Virus record (IMG/VR): IMGVR_UViG_3300029374_000071
Location: 1 to 5,955 of that record
Reading direction: 5' to 3' (one strand)
DNA: 5,955 nt
Origin: a virus
Part shown: positions 1 through 5,955 of the stretch, in pieces
Layout of the letters: every line of letters begins with the position of its first letter
Position numbering within the stretch: position 1 is the first letter of the stretch
Program-made: the position numbers and the translations under genes
The notes under the pieces: model-generated
Database searches by the model: none
Told to the model about the DNA's origin: nothing
Seen by the model: the letters and a program-made list of their open reading frames with translations, nothing else

Positions 1-103
1 GTTTCGCGCGTGCGCGCGCAATACCTTAGCATCAATCGATGCGACAGCCCCCGCGTTAGGGGGCGACGTCGCAAGGGGGCCGTTAACGGTAGTTAACGGC
101 CCC
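1..103. repeat. Left copy of the exact 103-nt terminal redundancy, identical to 5853-5955. The simplest reading is a circular genome of about 5,852 nt linearised with overlap.
   Basis: Direct comparison: 1-103 (gtttcgcgcgtgcgcgcgcaatacc...gtagttaacggcccc) matches 5853-5955 base for base. The content between the copies is one full complement of Microviridae genes. Confidence 0.85.
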
Positions 104-104
104 C
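29..104. promoter_or_regulatory. Cluster of three tandem GC-rich hairpins or nested palindromes. It is a candidate ssDNA origin or primosome-assembly-like element, or another cis-acting site.
   Basis: H0 29-42: GCATC-aatc-GATGC. H1: GCCCCC-gcgtta-GGGGGC at 47-64, flanked by GCGAC (41-45) and GTCGC (68-72). GCGACGTCGC at 63-72 is a perfect 10-bp palindrome. H2: a perfect 13-bp stem GGGGGCCGTTAAC (75-87) paired with GTTAACGGCCCCC (92-104) around a 4-nt loop ggta. It contains a nested palindrome CCGTTAACGG. This block is far more GC-rich than the rest of the genome. Confidence 0.5.
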
Positions 105-221
105 ACTCTACACACTCTTATACTCTGCTGCTCTTCTCTTTGGTGTCCCTGTGTTGGGAAACCTTAGCTTTGCGCGGAAGGGCTTTTATTTTGCTTTGTT
201 TGCTCTATCTATTACTTGTTG

Positions 222-236
222 TAGTAGTAGTAGTAG
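222..236. repeat. (TAG)5 trinucleotide microsatellite in the non-coding region.
   Basis: tagtagtagtagtag read directly from the sequence. Confidence 0.9.
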
Positions 237-240
237 GGAC

Positions 241-406
241 TGTTGAAACTGTTGAAAAGTCTAATTTTTAGCGTTGATACGCATATTTATCACCTTTTTT
301 CTTGTTTAAAGTTTTGTTGAAAACTTGTTGAATTGTTGAAAGTTCGTCAAATTGCCCTATTTCTTTGTGCAACTTTTTGTTGAAAACCTGTTGAAACTGT
401 TGAAAA
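241..406. repeat. Iteron array of eight copies of TGTTGAAA(A/C), with one variant TGTTGAAT. It is bounded by identical 18-mer dimer iterons TGTTGAAACTGTTGAAAA at 241-258 and 389-406.
   Basis: Copies at 241, 250, 315, 326 (TGTTGAAT), 334, 378, 389 and 398. The 13-mer TTTTGTTGAAAAC occurs twice, at 312-324 and 375-387. Spacing is 9-11 nt, about one helical turn. The array lies immediately after the VP2 stop at 408-410. Confidence 0.8.
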
Positions 407-407
407 C

Positions 408-1277
408 TTAATTTCCTGTATACGCGTCCATTATTTGATTAGGATTGATTGATGGATATGGTGTGATGTTTTTCCCACCTTTTTTCCAACTGTCTTTAAA
501 AGCTGATGCGGCTTTTCTGCCTGCACCTTTTACTGCGTTGCCCGCTTTATCTCCTGCGTCTCCAAGCTTGTCAAGCAAGTTGTTTGCCGCGTAGCTGTAA
601 TTGCTGACCTGTTTTGCACTTGACTGTGCTAGACTGCTTGCCGCTTCTTCAAAGCTCTTTGCTGAATGGTATTGTTTTGCGCTGGTGCTCTTTTTTGCCA
701 GTTCTAAGTATCTGTTTGCTAGCTCTGCAGTGTTGTTGCCGTACTCATACATAGCAGATACTGCTGCCGCCTGTGCGCTCTGCTGGTTGTAGTGTTGTGT
801 TCCGATGCTTGCGCTTGCTCCGCTTGGTGTTGCTGTAGCACCGTTGTTTGCTGCTAGTATAGGATTGATACCCGCCGCGATCATGTCCTTTACAGTGTCC
901 TGATATGCTGTTCCCCGCATTTCTTTTGCAAAGGCTCTTTCTGCCGCTGCTTCTGCGCTGTTGTACTTCTTTGCGCTTGCTTGGCTGCCTGCGTTCATGA
1001 CATTACTTAGAATTGAGCTTAAGTAGCTTAGCTTGTTTGCGTTGTTTACGCTTCCCTGATTGTTGTATGTTGTGATGCCTGTTGGTGTTCCAATTTGCGT
1101 TGAACCAATTTGCTGTGGCGCTGTTAGGCTTCCGGTTGTCGTTTCGCTTCCGGTTGTCGTTTCTTCTCCGGCTTTTTGACTGCTTTGTGCATTGCTTGTG
1201 TTCGTGTTTTGTATGATGCCTGAGATTAGACTAAGCCCCTGCATTATGTACGGCATCCATGATAAAAGTGTACCCAT
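408..1277 (-). CDS. DNA pilot / minor capsid protein (VP2-like, analogous to phiX174 H).
   Basis: The 289-aa ORF lies directly downstream of the major capsid gene, as in gokushoviruses. Its composition is low-complexity and rich in A/Q/S/G/N/T, typical of microvirus VP2/H pilot proteins. The Shine-Dalgarno GAAAGGAGAAA lies upstream, separated from the ATG by a hairpin. Assignment rests on position and composition, not on a recognised motif. Confidence 0.6.
   Translation of the reverse strand: MGTLLSWMPYIMQGLSLISGIIQNTNTSNAQSSQKAGEETTTGSETTTGSLTAPQQIGSTQIGTPTGITTYNNQGSVNNANKLSYLSSILSNVMNAGSQASAKKYNSAEAAAERAFAKEMRGTAYQDTVKDMIAAGINPILAANNGATATPSGASASIGTQHYNQQSAQAAAVSAMYEYGNNTAELANRYLELAKKSTSAKQYHSAKSFEEAASSLAQSSAKQVSNYSYAANNLLDKLGDAGDKAGNAVKGAGRKAASAFKDSWKKGGKNITPYPSINPNQIMDAYTGN
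1131..1166 (-). repeat. In-frame 18-nt tandem duplication inside VP2, encoding ETTTGS-ETTTGS.
   Basis: tccggttgtcgtttcgct at 1131-1148 and tccggttgtcgtttcttc at 1149-1166 on the plus strand. The protein shows ...GEETTTGSETTTGSLT... Confidence 0.85.
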
Positions 1278-1279
1278 TT

Positions 1280-1305
1280 AAAAATAGCCGGGTCTTTGCC
1301 CGGCT
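1280..1305 (-). terminator. Rho-independent-terminator-like hairpin between the VP1 stop and the VP2 start. It also sits between the VP2 Shine-Dalgarno and its ATG.
   Basis: Minus-strand reading: TAA(VP1 stop) GAAAGGAGAA AGCCGGG-caaaga-CCCGGCT ATTTTTAA ATG(VP2). There is a 7-bp GC stem, a 6-nt loop and a downstream T-run. Confidence 0.55.
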
Positions 1306-1315
1306 TTCTCCTTTC

Positions 1316-2965
1316 TTAGATTCTTTCGATGCCCGGGATGCTGTAGATAGGCATTTCCCGGAACCACGTTTCATTGAACCAGAAGTCACACAAGAACTGG
1401 TGTGATACTGCGGAAGTTACTGCGATAGTTCTATCGATGTTTTCACGTCCTTCCTGAATCCACTCCGCTGACAGTTTAGGCAGAGTGGAATAGTCGTCTG
1501 CATAGTGCCATGCATCTAGGCTTTTCTGATAGTTTGACCTCATTTCACCGGTTACATAAGAAGGTTTGTAGCGGTAATCCGCCCAAGCCTCTTGATAGCC
1601 AAAAATTTGGCTATCTTTTTCGCTTCCGTCTGCGTATATTTCTTGGTTATATACTGGCTGTTCGCCGAGGGCCGCAAGTCTCGGATCGTAGTACGTGAAT
1701 CGACCGCCGCGCGTCCATTTGGTTGCAAGGCCCTGTTGGTAGCTGTGTTCTACTCTCACTACTGCCAGCCCGATGATGTAACCGTACTCTGTGGCCGCAT
1801 AGTCTGCCATCTGCTTAGAACAGGTTGTCAGGCTATATGCTGCAGTGTTGCCCAGTGCCTGCCCGGTTGTGTTGTCCGTTTGGCTGGTCTGCACCACCTG
1901 GTTCACATTGATTGCAATGCGCTGCCCGCCGATGTATTCAGGAATTTGCAGACGGCTGTCCGGACTCGTTACGCCCCACGTTCCGGAAAGGAATTCTCTG
2001 TACCTCGTGCCGTTTCTGGCATCGGCCTCGAAGATGTGCTGTATAGCAATGGCCTGCCGCAAGTCGTTTATGGTCGTTTGTGCTCCTAAGGATTTATCTG
2101 ATGCTTTTTCCAGATTTGCGTACAGGTTGCCTTGTTTAATCTCGGTTCCTGCTGCTGTTGCTGCGCCACTTACTGTTGCAGGTCCGCCGCCTCCGCCGTC
2201 TATGCTTCCTGTTGCTCCACCATATCCTTCCATCCAGATTGTTGACTGTTGTTCTCTTCCGTCAAGTGTTCTCAGCTCTACCGGATACAGTCCTGACAGC
2301 GGCAGCGTTACCGGCTCTGTACTTTTCAAAGGCGAAGGTAAACACGATGTGAAATAATCGTGGAATTTGCCTGCGCGTGCCGGCTTCATTGCATATAACG
2401 TTGCTTCGTTCATGTTGGTCGTCTGTTCGATGGCGTTTGCATTTGCTGTTACATTGTTTGGGTTTTCGTTCGTGTCGCCTTCATCTGTTTTTTTGTATCC
2501 CAGCATAAGCGGCGCTTCAACATTTTCATCTCGAAACCACTCGTTGTATATCTTGCAGTATGCTCGTGCCGGCAAAGCGTTCACTTTCAGCGCGTTCGTT
2601 ACCTGTGTCGGTAGTCCGAAGTAGTCACCGATAGAGCCATTTGCAAGTCCACTTTCGCCGCCGATGGTGCACTTAGGTGTGGCATACTCTGTTTTCTCTT
2701 CCCAGTAGTCGTTATCATTTTCACCGAACATATTTTCAAAGTGATCCCATAAAAGTCTTGCAGGCACGAAGAAAAAATATGTGTCCATGTAGCAGTTATC
2801 CATGATAGGATAGATAGGAGTGCTCATACGAATTAGCCCGTTAAGCTGTACCCGTGCTGTGTCACCCGGGAGCACTTCATCCATATAGATGGGTACTAAC
2901 TCACCTTCGTTGATCGTCGTCAAAAGCTGATGACTACGGTCAAATTTCGATCGCGGTCTTTCCAT
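1316..2965 (-). CDS. Major capsid protein VP1 (Microviridae F-protein family, gokushovirus type).
   Basis: 549 aa. The N-terminal block KFDRSHQLLTTINEGELVPIYMDEVLPGDT...TPIYPIMDN...DTYFFFVPARLLW and the later block TINDLRQAIAIQHIFEADARNGTRY match conserved signatures I recall from Chlamydia-phage and SpV4-type VP1. A Gly-rich variable insert (GGATGSIDGGGGGPATVSGAATAAG) fits the hypervariable surface loop. The length is typical for gokushovirus VP1. Confidence 0.95.
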   Translation of the reverse strand: MERPRSKFDRSHQLLTTINEGELVPIYMDEVLPGDTARVQLNGLIRMSTPIYPIMDNCYMDTYFFFVPARLLWDHFENMFGENDNDYWEEKTEYATPKCTIGGESGLANGSIGDYFGLPTQVTNALKVNALPARAYCKIYNEWFRDENVEAPLMLGYKKTDEGDTNENPNNVTANANAIEQTTNMNEATLYAMKPARAGKFHDYFTSCLPSPLKSTEPVTLPLSGLYPVELRTLDGREQQSTIWMEGYGGATGSIDGGGGGPATVSGAATAAGTEIKQGNLYANLEKASDKSLGAQTTINDLRQAIAIQHIFEADARNGTRYREFLSGTWGVTSPDSRLQIPEYIGGQRIAINVNQVVQTSQTDNTTGQALGNTAAYSLTTCSKQMADYAATEYGYIIGLAVVRVEHSYQQGLATKWTRGGRFTYYDPRLAALGEQPVYNQEIYADGSEKDSQIFGYQEAWADYRYKPSYVTGEMRSNYQKSLDAWHYADDYSTLPKLSAEWIQEGRENIDRTIAVTSAVSHQFLCDFWFNETWFREMPIYSIPGIERI

Positions 2966-2990
2966 GCGCGGTACTTGCGCGAAATGCGAT

Positions 2991-3401
2991 TCACTGTTCC
3001 GGTTCGTTCTTCTTCACCTCTTCTTTCTTTTCTTCCTGCTTCGGCTGTTCGGTCTGTTTCAGCTGTTCCAGCGTTTCTGCTGCCGCCTGTGCCTTTTCTT
3101 GCATCGCCACAATGTCTTTAGGAAGGTTTTCCAGCGGCGTGCCTTCGGTGTAAATCGTGCTCTTTGCTTTGATGGAAATATCTCCGGCTTCCAGTCTCGC
3201 GATTGCGCTTGCAAGGTCGTAGCCCTCGCCTGCCTTCTGGATTTTTTCATAGATATTTTCATCTGGCTGTCGGATGTACTCCGTGGTGCCGTTTGCCCGC
3301 TTTACCGCCTTCCATGTCGGTGCCTTTTCGCTTCCGGCTTTGTTTGCCACTCTTTCGGTTGGCATTCCGTAGTAACGTATAAGGACGTTAGGATTTAGCA
3401 T
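2991..3401 (-). CDS. 136-aa highly charged protein immediately upstream of VP1. It may be an internal scaffolding or DNA-binding protein (VP3-like); the function call is tentative.
   Basis: A strong RBS TAAAGGAGAACATCA precedes the ATG at 3401. The start overlaps the stop of the upstream 84-aa ORF by 14 nt. The C-terminus is extremely K/E/Q-rich (EQLKQTEQPKQEEKKEEVKKNEPEQ). The ORF ends 25 nt before the VP1 start. Confidence 0.6.
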   Translation of the reverse strand: MLNPNVLIRYYGMPTERVANKAGSEKAPTWKAVKRANGTTEYIRQPDENIYEKIQKAGEGYDLASAIARLEAGDISIKAKSTIYTEGTPLENLPKDIVAMQEKAQAAAETLEQLKQTEQPKQEEKKEEVKKNEPEQ

Positions 3402-3642
3402 TGATGTTCTCCTTTAAGTCTACTAGACGTGCGATTTGCATTGGTGCTGCGTTGGTCATCGTGCCGTCGTCTGTGTCGAACTCGCCCAGCTCTACCAGGC
3501 TGATATCTTCGATTTCCTGTAGTTTGGAATCGTTTGCTTTCCACTTTGCAGTGCGGATTGCCTGTGCCCGGTTCTGCTGCAAGAACGGGTTGCTGTAGCC
3601 ATTCGTGATTGCATCGTGAAAACTGTAGAATTTCAGTGTCAT
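3388..3642 (-). CDS. 84-aa hypothetical protein, a small phage protein of unknown role.
   Basis: RBS AAAGAGGAATAAAATAT precedes the ATG at 3642. It is co-oriented with, and translationally overlaps, the downstream 136-aa ORF. I do not recognise a motif. Confidence 0.5.
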   Translation of the reverse strand: MTLKFYSFHDAITNGYSNPFLQQNRAQAIRTAKWKANDSKLQEIEDISLVELGEFDTDDGTMTNAAPMQIARLVDLKENINAKS

Positions 3643-3647
3643 ATTTT

Positions 3648-3753
3648 ATTCCTCTTTTTCAAGCTCTTCTGCGTCCTTCACGACTGCGTGGTAGATTTTG
3701 TCTACCATTGCAAGGATTTTCAGCAGGATGTTCATGGTTTCTTTAAAGTCCAT
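3648..3753 (-). CDS. Candidate 36-aa small ORF (MDFKETMNILLKILAMVDKIYHAVVKDAEELEKEE). It is not in the supplied track because it is under 60 aa.
   Basis: Hand translation of the minus strand. The ATG at 3753-3751 follows a textbook RBS, AAAAGGAGATGAACAG-ATG. The stop TAA at 3650-3648 lies 5 nt before the 84-aa ORF start. The sequence has a hydrophobic core and an acidic tail. Confidence 0.4.
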
Positions 3754-3906
3754 CTGTTCATCTCCTTTTATTGTTCCATGTGGAATATTACAGCCGGATA
3801 CCGCCCCGGCTTACCTTCGGTCGGACGTTGATATTTTTCGTCCGTTTTGCGGTCTGCGTAAATTTCCGCTGGTCGCCACGGCCTGCGCCGCTCCGATGTG
3901 ACATTT

Positions 3907-4293
3907 TTACACCCCCTTTCTGTAATATCCTTCGCGAACGTCTACGTGAACAAAATTTTTGTAGCATATTACCCCGCCGTAGTTTTTCATGTATTCGCTC
4001 GCGAATTTTGCTATTTCTTTTGGTGATACATCCTTTATCCTGATGTCTGCTGCCATTCCTTTACAATGATAGCTGTTCTTTGATTTTCCTACTTGTGTAT
4101 TCCACCATGGCGTTCTGTAGCCGCTGTTTACAATCACAGGTTTATTGAAGTTATCTCGAATCATTTCCAGTACTTCGAGTAGTTCTTGGCTTAACAGCAG
4201 TTCTTTTGCTCCGTCTTTGCTTGCCATTTCTTCCGCTGTGAAGTATGCTGAATGTATTTTTGTGTTTCTGTTGATGCAGTAGATTTTTCTCAT
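3907..4293 (-). CDS. Peptidase_M15-like (LAS-family zinc metallopeptidase), a putative peptidoglycan-hydrolysing endolysin.
   Basis: The block SGYRTPWWNTQVGKSKNSYHCKGMAADIRI...FVHVDV matches the His / Asp / His zinc-ligand arrangement and SGYR motif of Peptidase_M15_3 / VanY-like enzymes. The track ORF extends to 4323 only through an upstream TTG. The ATG at 4293-4291 has an excellent RBS (GGAAAAAGGAGCAATAGC-ATG), so I take 4293 as the start, giving 128 aa. Confidence 0.75.
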   Translation of the reverse strand: MRKIYCINRNTKIHSAYFTAEEMASKDGAKELLLSQELLEVLEMIRDNFNKPVIVNSGYRTPWWNTQVGKSKNSYHCKGMAADIRIKDVSPKEIAKFASEYMKNYGGVICYKNFVHVDVREGYYRKGV

Positions 4294-4368
4294 GCTATTG
4301 CTCCTTTTTCCGTATTGTACCAAGCAAACTTCTGGTTGTCAACTGGGAGTTTGCTTCTTTCATGTTTT

Positions 4369-4551
4369 TTATTCCTTTTCTGTGAAGTACATTGCCACTT
4401 TTTCTACTTTTTCCAATGAGTATAGGCCCGGGTTTCTTTTTGCGTATGCTTTCGCCTGTTGTTTTGCGTACTTTGGTTCAGCTGAAATCTTGAGCACGGT
4501 TCTTATCGTTCCGTCATCTTCGAAACTTCTGAGTTCATAGTAATGTGTCAT
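4369..4551 (-). CDS. 60-aa hypothetical protein, the first gene downstream of Rep.
   Basis: The ATG at 4551 is preceded by AGAAAGGAAGGCGGTCAAA and by a near-consensus promoter. The product MTHYYELRSFEDDGTIRTVLKISAEPKYAKQQAKAYAKRNPGLYSLEKVEKVAMYFTEKE has no motif I recognise. Confidence 0.5.
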   Translation of the reverse strand: MTHYYELRSFEDDGTIRTVLKISAEPKYAKQQAKAYAKRNPGLYSLEKVEKVAMYFTEKE

Positions 4552-4572
4552 TTTGACCGCCTTCCTTTCTGT

Positions 4573-4608
4573 GATTATATTCTATCATATTTTTGGGATT
4601 TTTTCAAG
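4573..4608 (-). promoter_or_regulatory. Sigma70-type promoter for the 60-aa ORF and downstream genes.
   Basis: Minus strand: TTGAAA (complement of 4607-4602), then the 17-nt spacer AAATCCCAAAAATATGA, then TAGAAT (complement of 4584-4579) with an upstream TG (extended -10), followed by ATAATCAC. It lies about 25 nt upstream of the ATG at 4551. Confidence 0.5.
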
Positions 4609-4640
4609 TTTTTTTCAAGTTTTTTTCAAGTTTTTTTCTG
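4598..4640. repeat. Three tandem 11-nt repeats TTTTTTTCAAG (minus strand CTTGAAAAAAA). These are phased A-tracts with 11-bp periodicity, each carrying a -35-like TTGAAA.
   Basis: CAAG recurs at 4605, 4616 and 4627 with T7 runs between. The array is flanked by further T/A runs (ctgaaaattttt). Confidence 0.85.
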
Positions 4641-4658
4641 AAAATTTTTCCTAGGATA

Positions 4659-4744
4659 GGAGCGCCGTTAGACTCCCGCCCGCAGGCGCTCCACTTGATA
4701 AGACTGGCTTGCCAGTCAGACTGTCGGGGCGCTCCGTCAGACTT
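4659..4744. repeat. GC-rich block of interleaved inverted and direct repeats immediately downstream of the Rep stop.
   Basis: GGAGCGCC (4659-4666) is the inverse complement of GGCGCTCC, which occurs twice (4685-4692 and 4728-4735). The 16-bp near-palindrome GACTGGCttGCCAGTC is at 4702-4717. AGACT occurs four times (4670, 4701, 4718, 4738). The 13-mers GCGCCGTTAGACT and GCTCCGTCAGACT form a direct-repeat pair. Confidence 0.7.
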
Positions 4745-4773
4745 TGCCGCCACTGCTCACCCTGCTTTATTGG

Positions 4774-5769
4774 CTATAAGGTTTCTTTCGGCTCTCTCCA
4801 TTTCTGTTTTTGCTTGTCTTTTTCCTTTTGTATCTCTAGGTATGTTGAGTACGGAACATTTGTGTTTTGCTCTAAGTTTACAAGGCTTAGCACTGCGTTT
4901 CTTCGTCTTTTGGCTCTTACTGTTCTTAGCTCGTCAGAATGGGCCTTGAAATAGCTTTCAGCGTCTTTGTTGGTATCCTTATCAAGAAGCTTATCAAAGT
5001 ATCTAGGCGGCCTTTTCTGCCGTCCTCCTGCGCATGTGATGTTGTCGGTTTCTAATATTTCGTTCATGTGCTCTTTTAGATACTCTTCTGCGATGCCTTT
5101 TGACATGATTCTAAATTCCGGTTCGCGGCCTTGCATCCAGTATTTTGAGCTCTGCTCTGCTCCGATTGCCTTTTTATTGACGTACTGTGTTACATATGAG
5201 TATGATCCTGGTGCCGCTGGGGAAAAGTCTACGAAGCCTTTTCCCCATATGTTCGTGAGCCATTCGCTTTTAAAGTATGCGTTGCCTTTCTGGTTTTTGT
5301 ACCACACTCCGTCCTCTGGTTTTAGTCCAAAAAAAATTCCGTGGTAGTGTGGCCTTTTTGTTCTGTCTCCATATTCTCCTGCTATGAAGTATTTTATCGG
5401 CTTTTTGTATGCCTTTCTGAGACGTTTTAGAAAAAGTTGTACGTCTCTTTTGCTCACTGTCTGTGATTGGATGCTCTGATAGCCTTTTAGGATTTCGCCA
5501 TAAGGTACGTGTTCCTCGTCATAAGTCATTGTAACGAAAATTACATCATCCCATCTTTTGGCTTCTAGTTCTATTCTCGTTGCCCATTGGTCTGCCATCT
5601 GTTTTCGGCAGTATTCACATTTCCCGCATGGTAACAATGCAAGGTTTCCTTTTTTTACGCCGTCCATGATTGTTTGTTCTAGGTTCTGTTTCTTTAGGTA
5701 CTTTAGACTTCCCCACATGGTTGGTTTTTTTGTGTTCATCTGGAAAACATTCGGATTTGTACATGGCAT
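4774..5769 (-). CDS. Rolling-circle replication initiation protein (Microviridae VP4 / phiX174 gpA family).
   Basis: 331 aa. RCR motif I is FVTMTY, motif II (HUH) is PHYHGIFFG and motif III is YVTQYVNKK, with two tyrosines spaced as in phiX gpA YVAKYVNK. A Cys cluster CGKCEYC is present. The length is typical of gokushovirus VP4. Confidence 0.95.
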   Translation of the reverse strand: MPCTNPNVFQMNTKKPTMWGSLKYLKKQNLEQTIMDGVKKGNLALLPCGKCEYCRKQMADQWATRIELEAKRWDDVIFVTMTYDEEHVPYGEILKGYQSIQSQTVSKRDVQLFLKRLRKAYKKPIKYFIAGEYGDRTKRPHYHGIFFGLKPEDGVWYKNQKGNAYFKSEWLTNIWGKGFVDFSPAAPGSYSYVTQYVNKKAIGAEQSSKYWMQGREPEFRIMSKGIAEEYLKEHMNEILETDNITCAGGRQKRPPRYFDKLLDKDTNKDAESYFKAHSDELRTVRAKRRRNAVLSLVNLEQNTNVPYSTYLEIQKEKDKQKQKWREPKETL

Positions 5770-5773
5770 AGGT

Positions 5774-5806
5774 TTGGCGCAAGTTCACTTGTCTATCTTG
5801 CGCCAA
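5774..5806. promoter_or_regulatory. Perfect 10-bp inverted repeat TTGGCGCAAG-N13-CTTGCGCCAA, ending 4 nt upstream of the Rep ATG.
   Basis: Arms at 5774-5783 and 5797-5806 are exact reverse complements. On the mRNA strand the 3' arm is followed by ACCT-ATG. No Shine-Dalgarno lies between the repeat and the start codon. Confidence 0.6.
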
Positions 5807-5838
5807 TTGACACCTCTCTTTCGTTTTTAATTTAAATT

Positions 5839-5872
5839 GCGTGCGCGTGCGCGTTTCGCGCGTGCGCGCGCA
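5839..5872. repeat. Two alternating purine-pyrimidine (Z-DNA-prone) tracts, GCGTGCGCGTGCGCG and CGCGCGTGCGCGCGCA, separated by TTT. The second tract is duplicated at window positions 5-20.
   Basis: Read directly from the sequence. The 10-bp perfect palindrome TGCGCGCGCA is at 11-20 and 5863-5872. Confidence 0.7.
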
Positions 5873-5955
5873 ATACCTTAGCATCAATCGATGCGACAGC
5901 CCCCGCGTTAGGGGGCGACGTCGCAAGGGGGCCGTTAACGGTAGTTAACGGCCCC
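5853..5955. repeat. Right copy of the 103-nt terminal redundancy. Its hairpin and Z-prone elements duplicate those at 1-103.
   Basis: Exact identity to 1-103. Confidence 0.85.

Follow-up and report, generated by a model that had tools for sequence, protein, structure and literature searches.

We analyzed a viral DNA stretch of 5,955 nucleotides (nt), positions 1 to 5,955 of the IMG/VR record IMGVR_UViG_3300029374_000071, referred to as the window throughout. It carries the genes Rep(VP4)-orf60-M15-ORF8-like-orf35-VP5-VP3-VP1-VP2 in this order, followed by a 490-nt non-coding region (Table 1). All of them lie on one strand, and all conserved open reading frames (ORFs) of the window are found on its minus strand, here termed the coding strand. 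Judged by homology, this is the complete gokushovirus complement of Rep(VP4), VP5, VP3, VP1, VP2 and an ORF8-like protein, to which an M15 peptidase and two accessory ORFs are added. With high confidence, we read the window as a circularly permuted copy of a complete gokushovirus genome of 5,852 nt, the phage being of the lytic type and a member of an abundant human-gut clade (Microviridae, Gokushovirinae in present usage). Comparisons were made with a set of 72 relatives, 4 from GenBank and 68 IMG/VR contigs.

Table 1. Features located in the window, in window coordinates (-, minus strand;., no strand assigned; aa, amino acids).
Positions	Strand	Feature	Evidence and remarks
1-103	.	First copy of the 103-nt terminal overlap	Exact end match; falls within the GC-rich non-coding element
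1-187	-	GC-rich structured element, main part	About 204 nt together with 5836-5852; single-stranded DNA fold, covariation
210-407	-	Eight TTCAACA repeats (241-404) and CCCTACTACTACTACTACAACAAGTAATA block (210-238)	Adjoins VP2; clade conservation
408-1277	-	VP2, predicted DNA pilot protein, 289 aa	phrog_18604 1.5e-128; several 'pilot protein for DNA ejection' PHROGs
1280-1305	-	Terminator-like hairpin AGCCGGGCAAAGACCCGGCT, then ATTTTT	Between VP1 and VP2; RNA fold z = -2.25
1316-2965	-	VP1, predicted major capsid protein, 549 aa	PF02305 (Phage_F) 1.5e-145; phrog_514 2.6e-196
2991-3401	-	VP3, predicted internal scaffolding protein, divergent, 136 aa	Transitive PF09675 (Chlamy_scaf) profile homology; directly upstream of VP1
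3388-3642	-	VP5/ORF5, predicted non-structural protein, 84 aa	PF20577 1.5e-13; phrog_1670 7.4e-19
3646-3753	-	orf35, small accessory ORF	Stop-free homologs in 28/72 relatives; called by public gene callers on L081 and L082
3788-3904	-	ORF8/J-like small basic protein, predicted DNA-binding, 38 aa	phrog_10695 2.6e-6; mechanical ORF reaches 3967
3907-4293	-	M15_3 zinc peptidase (predicted), 128 aa from the ATG after AAGGAG	PF08291 3e-22, 79 bits (cut-off 23.2); phrog_894 endolysin 3e-37
4314-4342	-	Promoter-like site of strong sigma-70 type, TTGACA-17-TACAAT, TG extension	11/12 consensus matches only; just upstream of M15
4369-4551	-	orf60, accessory ORF	Stop-free homologs in 16/72 relatives
4579-4633	-	Promoter-like site TTGAAA-17-TAGAAT, extended -10, with three tandem 11-nt AAACTTGAAAAA units	Consensus match only; upstream of orf60 (repeat family D4)
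4774-5769	-	Rep/VP4, predicted rolling-circle initiator, 331 aa	PF23343 3.8e-19; phrog_942 4.9e-102
5774-5806	-	10-bp stem with 13-nt loop (begins ATAGACAAG)	Between Shine-Dalgarno GAGGTG (5811-5816) and Rep ATG; covariation
5836-5852	-	GC-rich structured element, Rep-side end (part of hairpin 3)	Continues across the junction
5853-5955	.	Second copy of the 103-nt terminal overlap	Exact end match; unit genome = 1-5852

In the PDB, VP1 matched chain 9cgm_A ('Capsid protein VP1') at 4.7e-116 and a further VP1 chain at 3.2e-105. Over its full length it is 40% identical to VP1 of Chp2 and 38.5% to that of phiMH2K; identity to phiX174 F is about 22%, in two local pieces. In the sequence alignment, VP1 residues 168-321 correspond to residues 155-215 of phiX174 F, i.e., VP1 has about 90 extra aa at the presumed site of the 'mushroom' loop insertion. 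Rep carries the HUH motif HYHGIFF and the sequence YVTQYVNKK, to be compared with the phiX174 A active site YVAKYVNKK, and shares 30-32% of its residues with the Rep proteins of phiMH2K and Chp2. VP2 is 36% identical to Chp2 VP2 over 113 aa, and VP5 is 34% identical to its phiMH2K counterpart. The ORF8-like gene starts 2 nt past the M15 stop and encodes 11 K+R residues and 1 D+E residue. It is kept in 72/72 relatives, where the protein starts with M(A/S)HRSG, and its C-terminus RGGIRL recalls the endings …MRGGIRL of phiMH2K ORF8 and …MRGGIRF of Chp2 ORF8. Because of this C-terminus and the conservation in all 72 relatives, we assign the 38-aa product as a probable ORF8/J-like protein. Among all ORFs tested, Pfam and PHROG searches gave no match to the Bullavirinae-specific families of the major spike G, the external scaffold D and the lysis protein E.

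By homology to phiX174, Chp2 and phiMH2K, Rep would act as an HUH/YxxxY nuclease, nicking the replicative form and driving DNA synthesis in the rolling-circle mode. A role in single-strand DNA synthesis and packaging would fall to VP5 and the basic ORF8-like protein, VP3 would scaffold VP1 into a T=1 procapsid, and VP2 would pilot the DNA into the cell. Finally, the M15 zinc peptidase, again as suggested by its homologs, would cut peptidoglycan cross-links and free the progeny.

The two ends of the window are identical, positions 1-103 being repeated exactly at 5853-5955 (repeat family D1), and the non-redundant unit (window 1-5852) thus comprises 5,852 nt. The earlier note on this DNA, made without database searches, had taken it for an entire circular replicon and not a fragment. 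This is borne out by the exact overlap and by an identical circle in a separate assembly: the Logan assembly of SRR5057102 (L081) is 5,882 nt long, its ends overlap by 30 nt, and it is 100% identical to the 5,852-nt circle. L081 is opened at another point and crosses the window junction unbroken, with a single copy of the 103-nt stretch. Furthermore, a 1,943-nt ENA contig that spans orf60 to VP3 is 100% identical to the window, whose sequence is accordingly already present in public metagenome assemblies. Exact terminal overlaps were also found in 47/72 relatives, with lengths typical of assembler k-mers (55, 99, 119, 123, 141 and others). Since the Rep genes lie at different contig offsets, these relatives have been opened at different points, and those opened elsewhere are collinear with the window across the window junction. 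The 103-nt end repeat is an assembly artefact, produced when the assembler walked once around the circle. Every gene is present in a single copy, every ORF is intact, and a circle this small falls within the Microviridae range of 3.5-8.3 kb. Two checks named in the earlier note gave the same picture, as both VP1 and Rep match Microviridae profile models strongly (PF02305 and PF23343, respectively; Table 1), and the window lacks any non-viral sequence that could represent a host flank.

Direct terminal repeats can also mark integration sites, and the window might then be an integrated prophage or a tandem insertion with the 103-nt copies as att-like direct repeats. Some gokushoviruses integrate at dif via XerCD (PMC7062461), and the repeat lies in a non-coding structured region, a frequent place of attachment sites. 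However, no non-viral sequence exists outside the repeats, L081 crosses the junction with one copy only, relatives opened elsewhere are collinear, and the 47 relatives with overlaps of k-mer length have Rep at different contig offsets. When VP1 peptide patterns were searched in one genome each of 185,579 bacterial and archaeal species, no close relative was found, in a scan that detects close relatives only. A 28-bp dif-like motif had one match with two mismatches inside VP1, which is at chance level, and Pfam and PHROG searches found no integrase among the window ORFs. As there is no flank, no close VP1 relative in the bacterial and archaeal genomes scanned, no dif-like site above chance and no integrase, and as L081 contains the circle, we consider integration very unlikely, its probability being close to negligible.

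Directly upstream of VP1, a 136-aa ORF follows a strong Shine-Dalgarno sequence (AAGGAG at 8 nt) and is intact in 72/72 relatives. All 13 clade members tested matched the Chlamy_scaf family PF09675, the best at 1.7e-5. A profile built from the clade, run against 1.84 billion representative proteins, reached the proteins P0257, P0261 and P0262 at E = 2e-7 to 1e-4. These three each score 80-103 bits on Chlamy_scaf, and on the grounds of this link we call the ORF VP3. It is a divergent VP3, as far as profile and transitive matches can tell; a PDB search with the VP3 profile returned noise only. The family is large, with at least 1,478 clusters at 90% identity. VP3 is hence present directly upstream of VP1 and not between VP2 and Rep, unlike in Chp2 and phiMH2K, and the GenBank entries MG945753 and PP511878 carry an annotated VP3 or scaffold at the same upstream place. 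The earlier note had described the canonical VP3 position between VP2 and Rep as taken by a 490-nt non-coding region; it was right about the size of this gap (1-407 plus 5770-5852) and, relative to the classical references, about VP3 not being there, but VP3 is not missing from the genome.

Taken further, the suggestion of the earlier note would make the window a truly new microvirus lineage with a rearranged genome, from which VP3 had been lost and in which the non-coding region had taken its place. This would agree with classical references that put VP3 after VP2, and with the score of the 136-aa ORF under the Pfam cut-off. Also, tblastn with this ORF finds only four GenBank phage records, and the nearest genomes are only about 87% identical. 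Against such a loss, the ORF is homologous to VP3, the arrangement has been in the literature since 2012 (PMC3394797) and is annotated with VP3 upstream of VP1 in MG945753 and PP511878, and the layout is common to the 72 relatives. We therefore regard such a lineage as very improbable and retain the reading of a complete gokushovirus gene set.

The reading as a complete lytic-type gokushovirus genome has several points to contend with. All protein functions are predictions from homology. On PF09675, the window VP3 alone reaches 19 bits where the curated cut-off is 25, and a comparison by hhalign between the clade alignment and a poor three-sequence VP3 reference alignment gave a probability of 0.2%. 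L081 is a separate assembly, but it may stem from the same sample as the window, and the two data sets are perhaps not independent. A diverged integrated copy could escape the VP1 scan of bacterial genomes. With regard to lysis, no membrane-spanning segment was found in coding-strand ORFs of 25 aa or more, so that there is no holin candidate, and the M15 peptidase comes without an obvious signal peptide.

Being larger than classical gokushoviruses, as the earlier note had stated, the 5,852-nt genome compares with 4.56-4.59 kb in Chp2 and phiMH2K. Size and gene order had there been called atypical, a view that does not hold among the relatives. The order was published in 2012 (PMC3394797), the 72 relatives have the same backbone, and the unit sizes of the 47 with terminal overlaps range from 5,413 to 5,954 nt (median 5,656). 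The backbone order is common to all complete relatives in the set, and the VP2-Rep gap measures 266-520 nt in 71/72. The distinct lineage or rearranged architecture that the note had suggested likewise gives way to a layout shared by 72 relatives in which VP3 is present, and its five small genes between Rep and VP1 become six conserved ORFs (orf60, M15, ORF8-like, orf35, VP5 and VP3).

Roux et al. 2012 described the order VP4-VP5-VP3-VP1-VP2 for human-gut Gokushovirinae, with assembled genomes of 3,989-6,723 nt and a VP3 that in some genomes was found by profile methods only (PMC3394797). In five gut gokushoviruses they found M15_3 peptidase genes, of which four were closest to genes of Faecalibacterium, and proposed that the peptidase was horizontally acquired and is an endolysin (PMC3394797). 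The window resembles this human-gut subgroup in gene order, M15_3 peptidase and hard-to-detect VP3, a match by architecture and description only. For microviruses in general, Kirchberger et al. 2022 gave a median genome size of 5,078 nt, with sizes from 3.5 to 8.3 kb, and found that VP1-VP2-VP4 keep their order while VP3 changes its place, and that distant microviruses recombine their peptidase genes (PMC9239249). Size, gene order, peptidase and long non-coding region of the window are thus the published norm for human-gut gokushoviruses.

The nearest relatives of the window show about 87% identity over 82-85% of the genome. In GenBank, the closest is KT264784 (Gokushovirus WZ-2015a isolate 36Fra03; 5,560 nt), with 87% nt identity over 82% of the genome and 82% aa identity in VP1. 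The other three GenBank relatives are KX513864 (Human gokushovirus SH-CHD1), KX513876 (Human gut gokushovirus SH-CHD13) and MT121961 (Gokushovirinae sp. SC_3_H2_2017). All four come from human faeces, have 5.5-5.7 kb and are filed under Gokushovirinae, and it is this filing, together with the best matches, that argues for the placement of the window in this subfamily. They share with the window the backbone order, a VP2-VP4 gap of ~330-500 nt and an A-rich, T-poor coding strand, at aa identities of 80-95% for Rep, 71-82% for VP1, 71-87% for VP2, 70-81% for VP5 and 75-81% for VP3. In contrast, their M15 alleles are only 42-47% aa identical to that of the window. KT264784 and KX513864 have the ORF8-like gene before M15, whereas in the window it follows M15, and the window is ~200-350 nt longer than the four, mainly in the Rep-to-VP5 cassette.

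The classical phages are more distant. Chp2 has the order VP1-VP2-VP3-ORF8-ORF4-ORF5 and phiMH2K the order VP1-VP2-VP3-VP5-ORF8-Rep, with VP3 after VP2 in both. Their homologs of window proteins are VP1 (38-40% identity), VP4 (30-32%), VP5 (27-34%), VP2, VP3 (at the profile level) and ORF8 (RGGIRL). Like the window, they have all genes on one strand and no counterparts of phiX174 G, D and E; unlike the window, they lack a peptidase and a long VP2-Rep gap. The window is a new species-level member of a known, well-sampled human-gut gokushovirus clade. As such, the genome is of little weight, being one more member whose size, order and peptidase were described in 2012 and 2022. Modestly new, in our view, are an M15 gene swapped in from a distant lineage and a GC-rich four-hairpin element with compensatory changes.

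The M15 product has an intact zinc triad (H76/D83/H116, His-Asp-His) within the motifs HCKGMAAD and HVD, and from its family matches it is probably an endolysin; a PDB search with it gave no match at E <= 0.001. Its relationships differ from those of the backbone: the window M15 shares no more than 51% aa identity with its counterparts in close relatives, in comparison with 70-96% for the window backbone proteins. In a wider protein database, M15 copies 75-88% identical were found on other contigs of 5.5-6.2 kb. On the nt level, a 424-nt island that corresponds to the M15 gene (window 3898-4319) is 87% identical to L083-L085, a distant gokushovirus lineage with aa identities to the window of 41% in VP1, 38% in Rep and 31% in VP2. 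With 87% nt identity in the island and only 31-41% aa identity in the backbones, the sequence comparison clearly points to acquisition of the M15 lysis cassette from this distant lineage by recombination. The cassette order orf60-M15-ORF8 of the window is that of the subclade with ~80% Rep identity, whereas its own subclade (~95% Rep identity) has ORF8 before M15. The Rep-to-VP5 segment is a variable accessory cassette, into which the window's M15 allele was imported by recombination. With this, the window offers a clean example of endolysin cassette exchange between gokushovirus lineages whose proteins are only 31-41% identical.

In the window, a subclade-A backbone is combined with a cassette order like that of subclade B and with a foreign M15. 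This combination could also result from a chimeric or mis-assembled circle, in which two related microviruses were joined at shared segments. Such an assembly occurs in the same dataset family, namely L027 (IMGVR_UViG_3300045988_004182). At 10,711 nt, L027 was considered as a large genome and rejected as a chimeric co-assembly of two microviruses: it holds two VP1 copies 74% and 40% identical to the window, and its joins are 68 nt at 97% and 80 nt at 99%. For the window itself, the identical 5,852-nt circle came from a different assembler, the 1,943-nt ENA contig agrees at 100%, and there is one copy per gene with all ORFs intact. The M15 island is 87% and not 100% identical to the donor lineage, which fits an old recombination better than an assembly join. 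A chimeric origin is hence very improbable, and we keep to recombination between phages as the source of the M15 gene.

As to the other parts of the cassette, orf60 had no Pfam or PHROG match. The three AAACTTGAAAAA copies (4600-4633, minus strand) overlap -35-like TTGAAA boxes and lie within the 222-nt gap between Rep and orf60.

The GC-rich element spans the window junction and folds into four hairpins (142-163, 75-104, 41-72 and 5837-5873), with z = -4.95 for the single-stranded DNA fold. In 16 aligned copies (alignment A4), 9/39 consensus pairs show double-sided compensatory changes. On the coding strand, G:T cells outnumber A:C cells (22 vs 11), which speaks for a role of the sense strand. 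Even close relatives differ in the element, which some have, some lack and some retain only in part. The other subclade carries it directly after the VP2 stop (L020, L026, L046 and others) and not beside Rep, and in L085 it is found between Rep and M15 (1130-1260) with unchanged orientation to the genes. It thus occupies three genomic positions in three lineages, and its orientation relative to the genes is always the same. A 29-base pattern from the element had no exact match in the bacterial genomes scanned and in IMG/VR was confined to this clade. Rfam searches of the whole window at E <= 1 gave chance matches only (RybB, L25 leader, mir-103), far under the gathering scores.

Structured complementary-strand origins are known from the phiX174 n' site, the three-hairpin origin of G4, the minus origin of M13 and the ssoA of rolling-circle plasmids. 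The GC-rich element shares with them a length of ~200 nt, a non-coding nature, several stable hairpins, dispensability, independence of position, a fixed orientation and the sense-strand excess of G:T; it is likened to them by properties and not by sequence. By this analogy, the element may be an undescribed self-contained cis module, and we tentatively suggest, as the foremost though doubtful candidate function, a complementary-strand origin that recruits host priming on the incoming single-stranded DNA. A structured RNA seems less likely to us. The loop of hairpin 2, TA(A/G)CGC, resembles TAGCGT, the CS-6 motif of ssoA, a likeness that is no test of the function. If the element is indeed such an origin, it would pass from lineage to lineage by recombination in the manner of the M15 cassette.

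Along the coding strand, from VP2 towards Rep, the non-coding region comprises the TTCAACA repeats, the CCCTACTACTACTACTACAACAAGTAATA block, the GC-rich element, and GAGGTG with the stem-loop ahead of the Rep ATG. With its TTCAACA repeats, covarying Rep-leader hairpin and dispensable four-hairpin element, the region would serve as the control region of the clade. We know of no experimentally defined gokushovirus replication origin. The anatomy described here offers covarying hairpins and repeats as concrete candidates, in a system that is resurrectable from synthetic DNA.

TTCAACA repeats occur in 5-10 copies in 70/72 relatives. Alongside them, a (CTA)n-CAACAAGTAATA block is kept throughout the clade. 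This whole repeat/CTAC module is inverted with respect to the genes in the distant lineage of L085 (L085 1262-1440), which suggests that it is recognized as double-stranded DNA, e.g., as a promoter, an operator or a protein-binding array. We also considered CTACAACAAGTAATA as a plus-strand nick site for Rep and rejected it, as the motif shares this inversion; the CAACAAG block is thus unlikely to be such a site.

In the Rep-leader stem, 95.6% of cells are paired, and 17 double-sided changes were counted compared with 5.9±2.0 in shuffled alignments, 0/500 of which reach 17. One position occurs as A-U, G-C and C-G, and slid controls all scored far lower. The RNA fold of the hairpin has z = -3.0, and the first nine bases (ATAGACAAG) of its loop ATAGACAAGTGAA are nearly invariant. 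The hairpin is a candidate for translational control of Rep, or for an origin element recognized by Rep. A split ribosome-binding site like that of T4 gene 38, with GAGG placed by the hairpin within 8-10 nt of the ATG, fits the subclade of the window. It was not adopted, since in the other subclade the stem is followed by a tail with 9 additional nt. In the RNA fold of the window's own Rep leader, GGUGU is also paired with AUGCC, so that both ribosome-binding site and start codon would be masked.

The coding strand of the window is A-rich and T-poor, with 36.8% A and 17.4% T. Values of 34-37% A and 17-19% T on the coding (packaged-sense) strand were seen in the clade, in other gut lineages and in phiMH2K (L001-L004, L074, L075, L077 and L085 were examined), whereas the strands of phiX174 and Chp2 are T-rich, opposite to that of the window. 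Long plus-strand ORFs of 118-170 aa were rejected as genes, since in most relatives they are interrupted by in-frame stops and since no family matched them. Such long spurious antisense ORFs arise because the antisense strand is A-poor and therefore has few stop codons.

No Shine-Dalgarno sequence is recognizable in the start region (about 2966-2990, minus strand) of VP1, which is more abundant in the virion than any other protein. The VP1 ATG is found 25 nt past the VP3 stop, inside a short CGCG…CGCG palindrome, and translation of VP1 is possibly coupled to that of VP3. The only Shine-Dalgarno-like sequence for VP2, AAGGAG, is located upstream of the GC-rich hairpin at 1280-1305. From its position, this hairpin may act as an attenuator that lowers VP2 relative to VP1.

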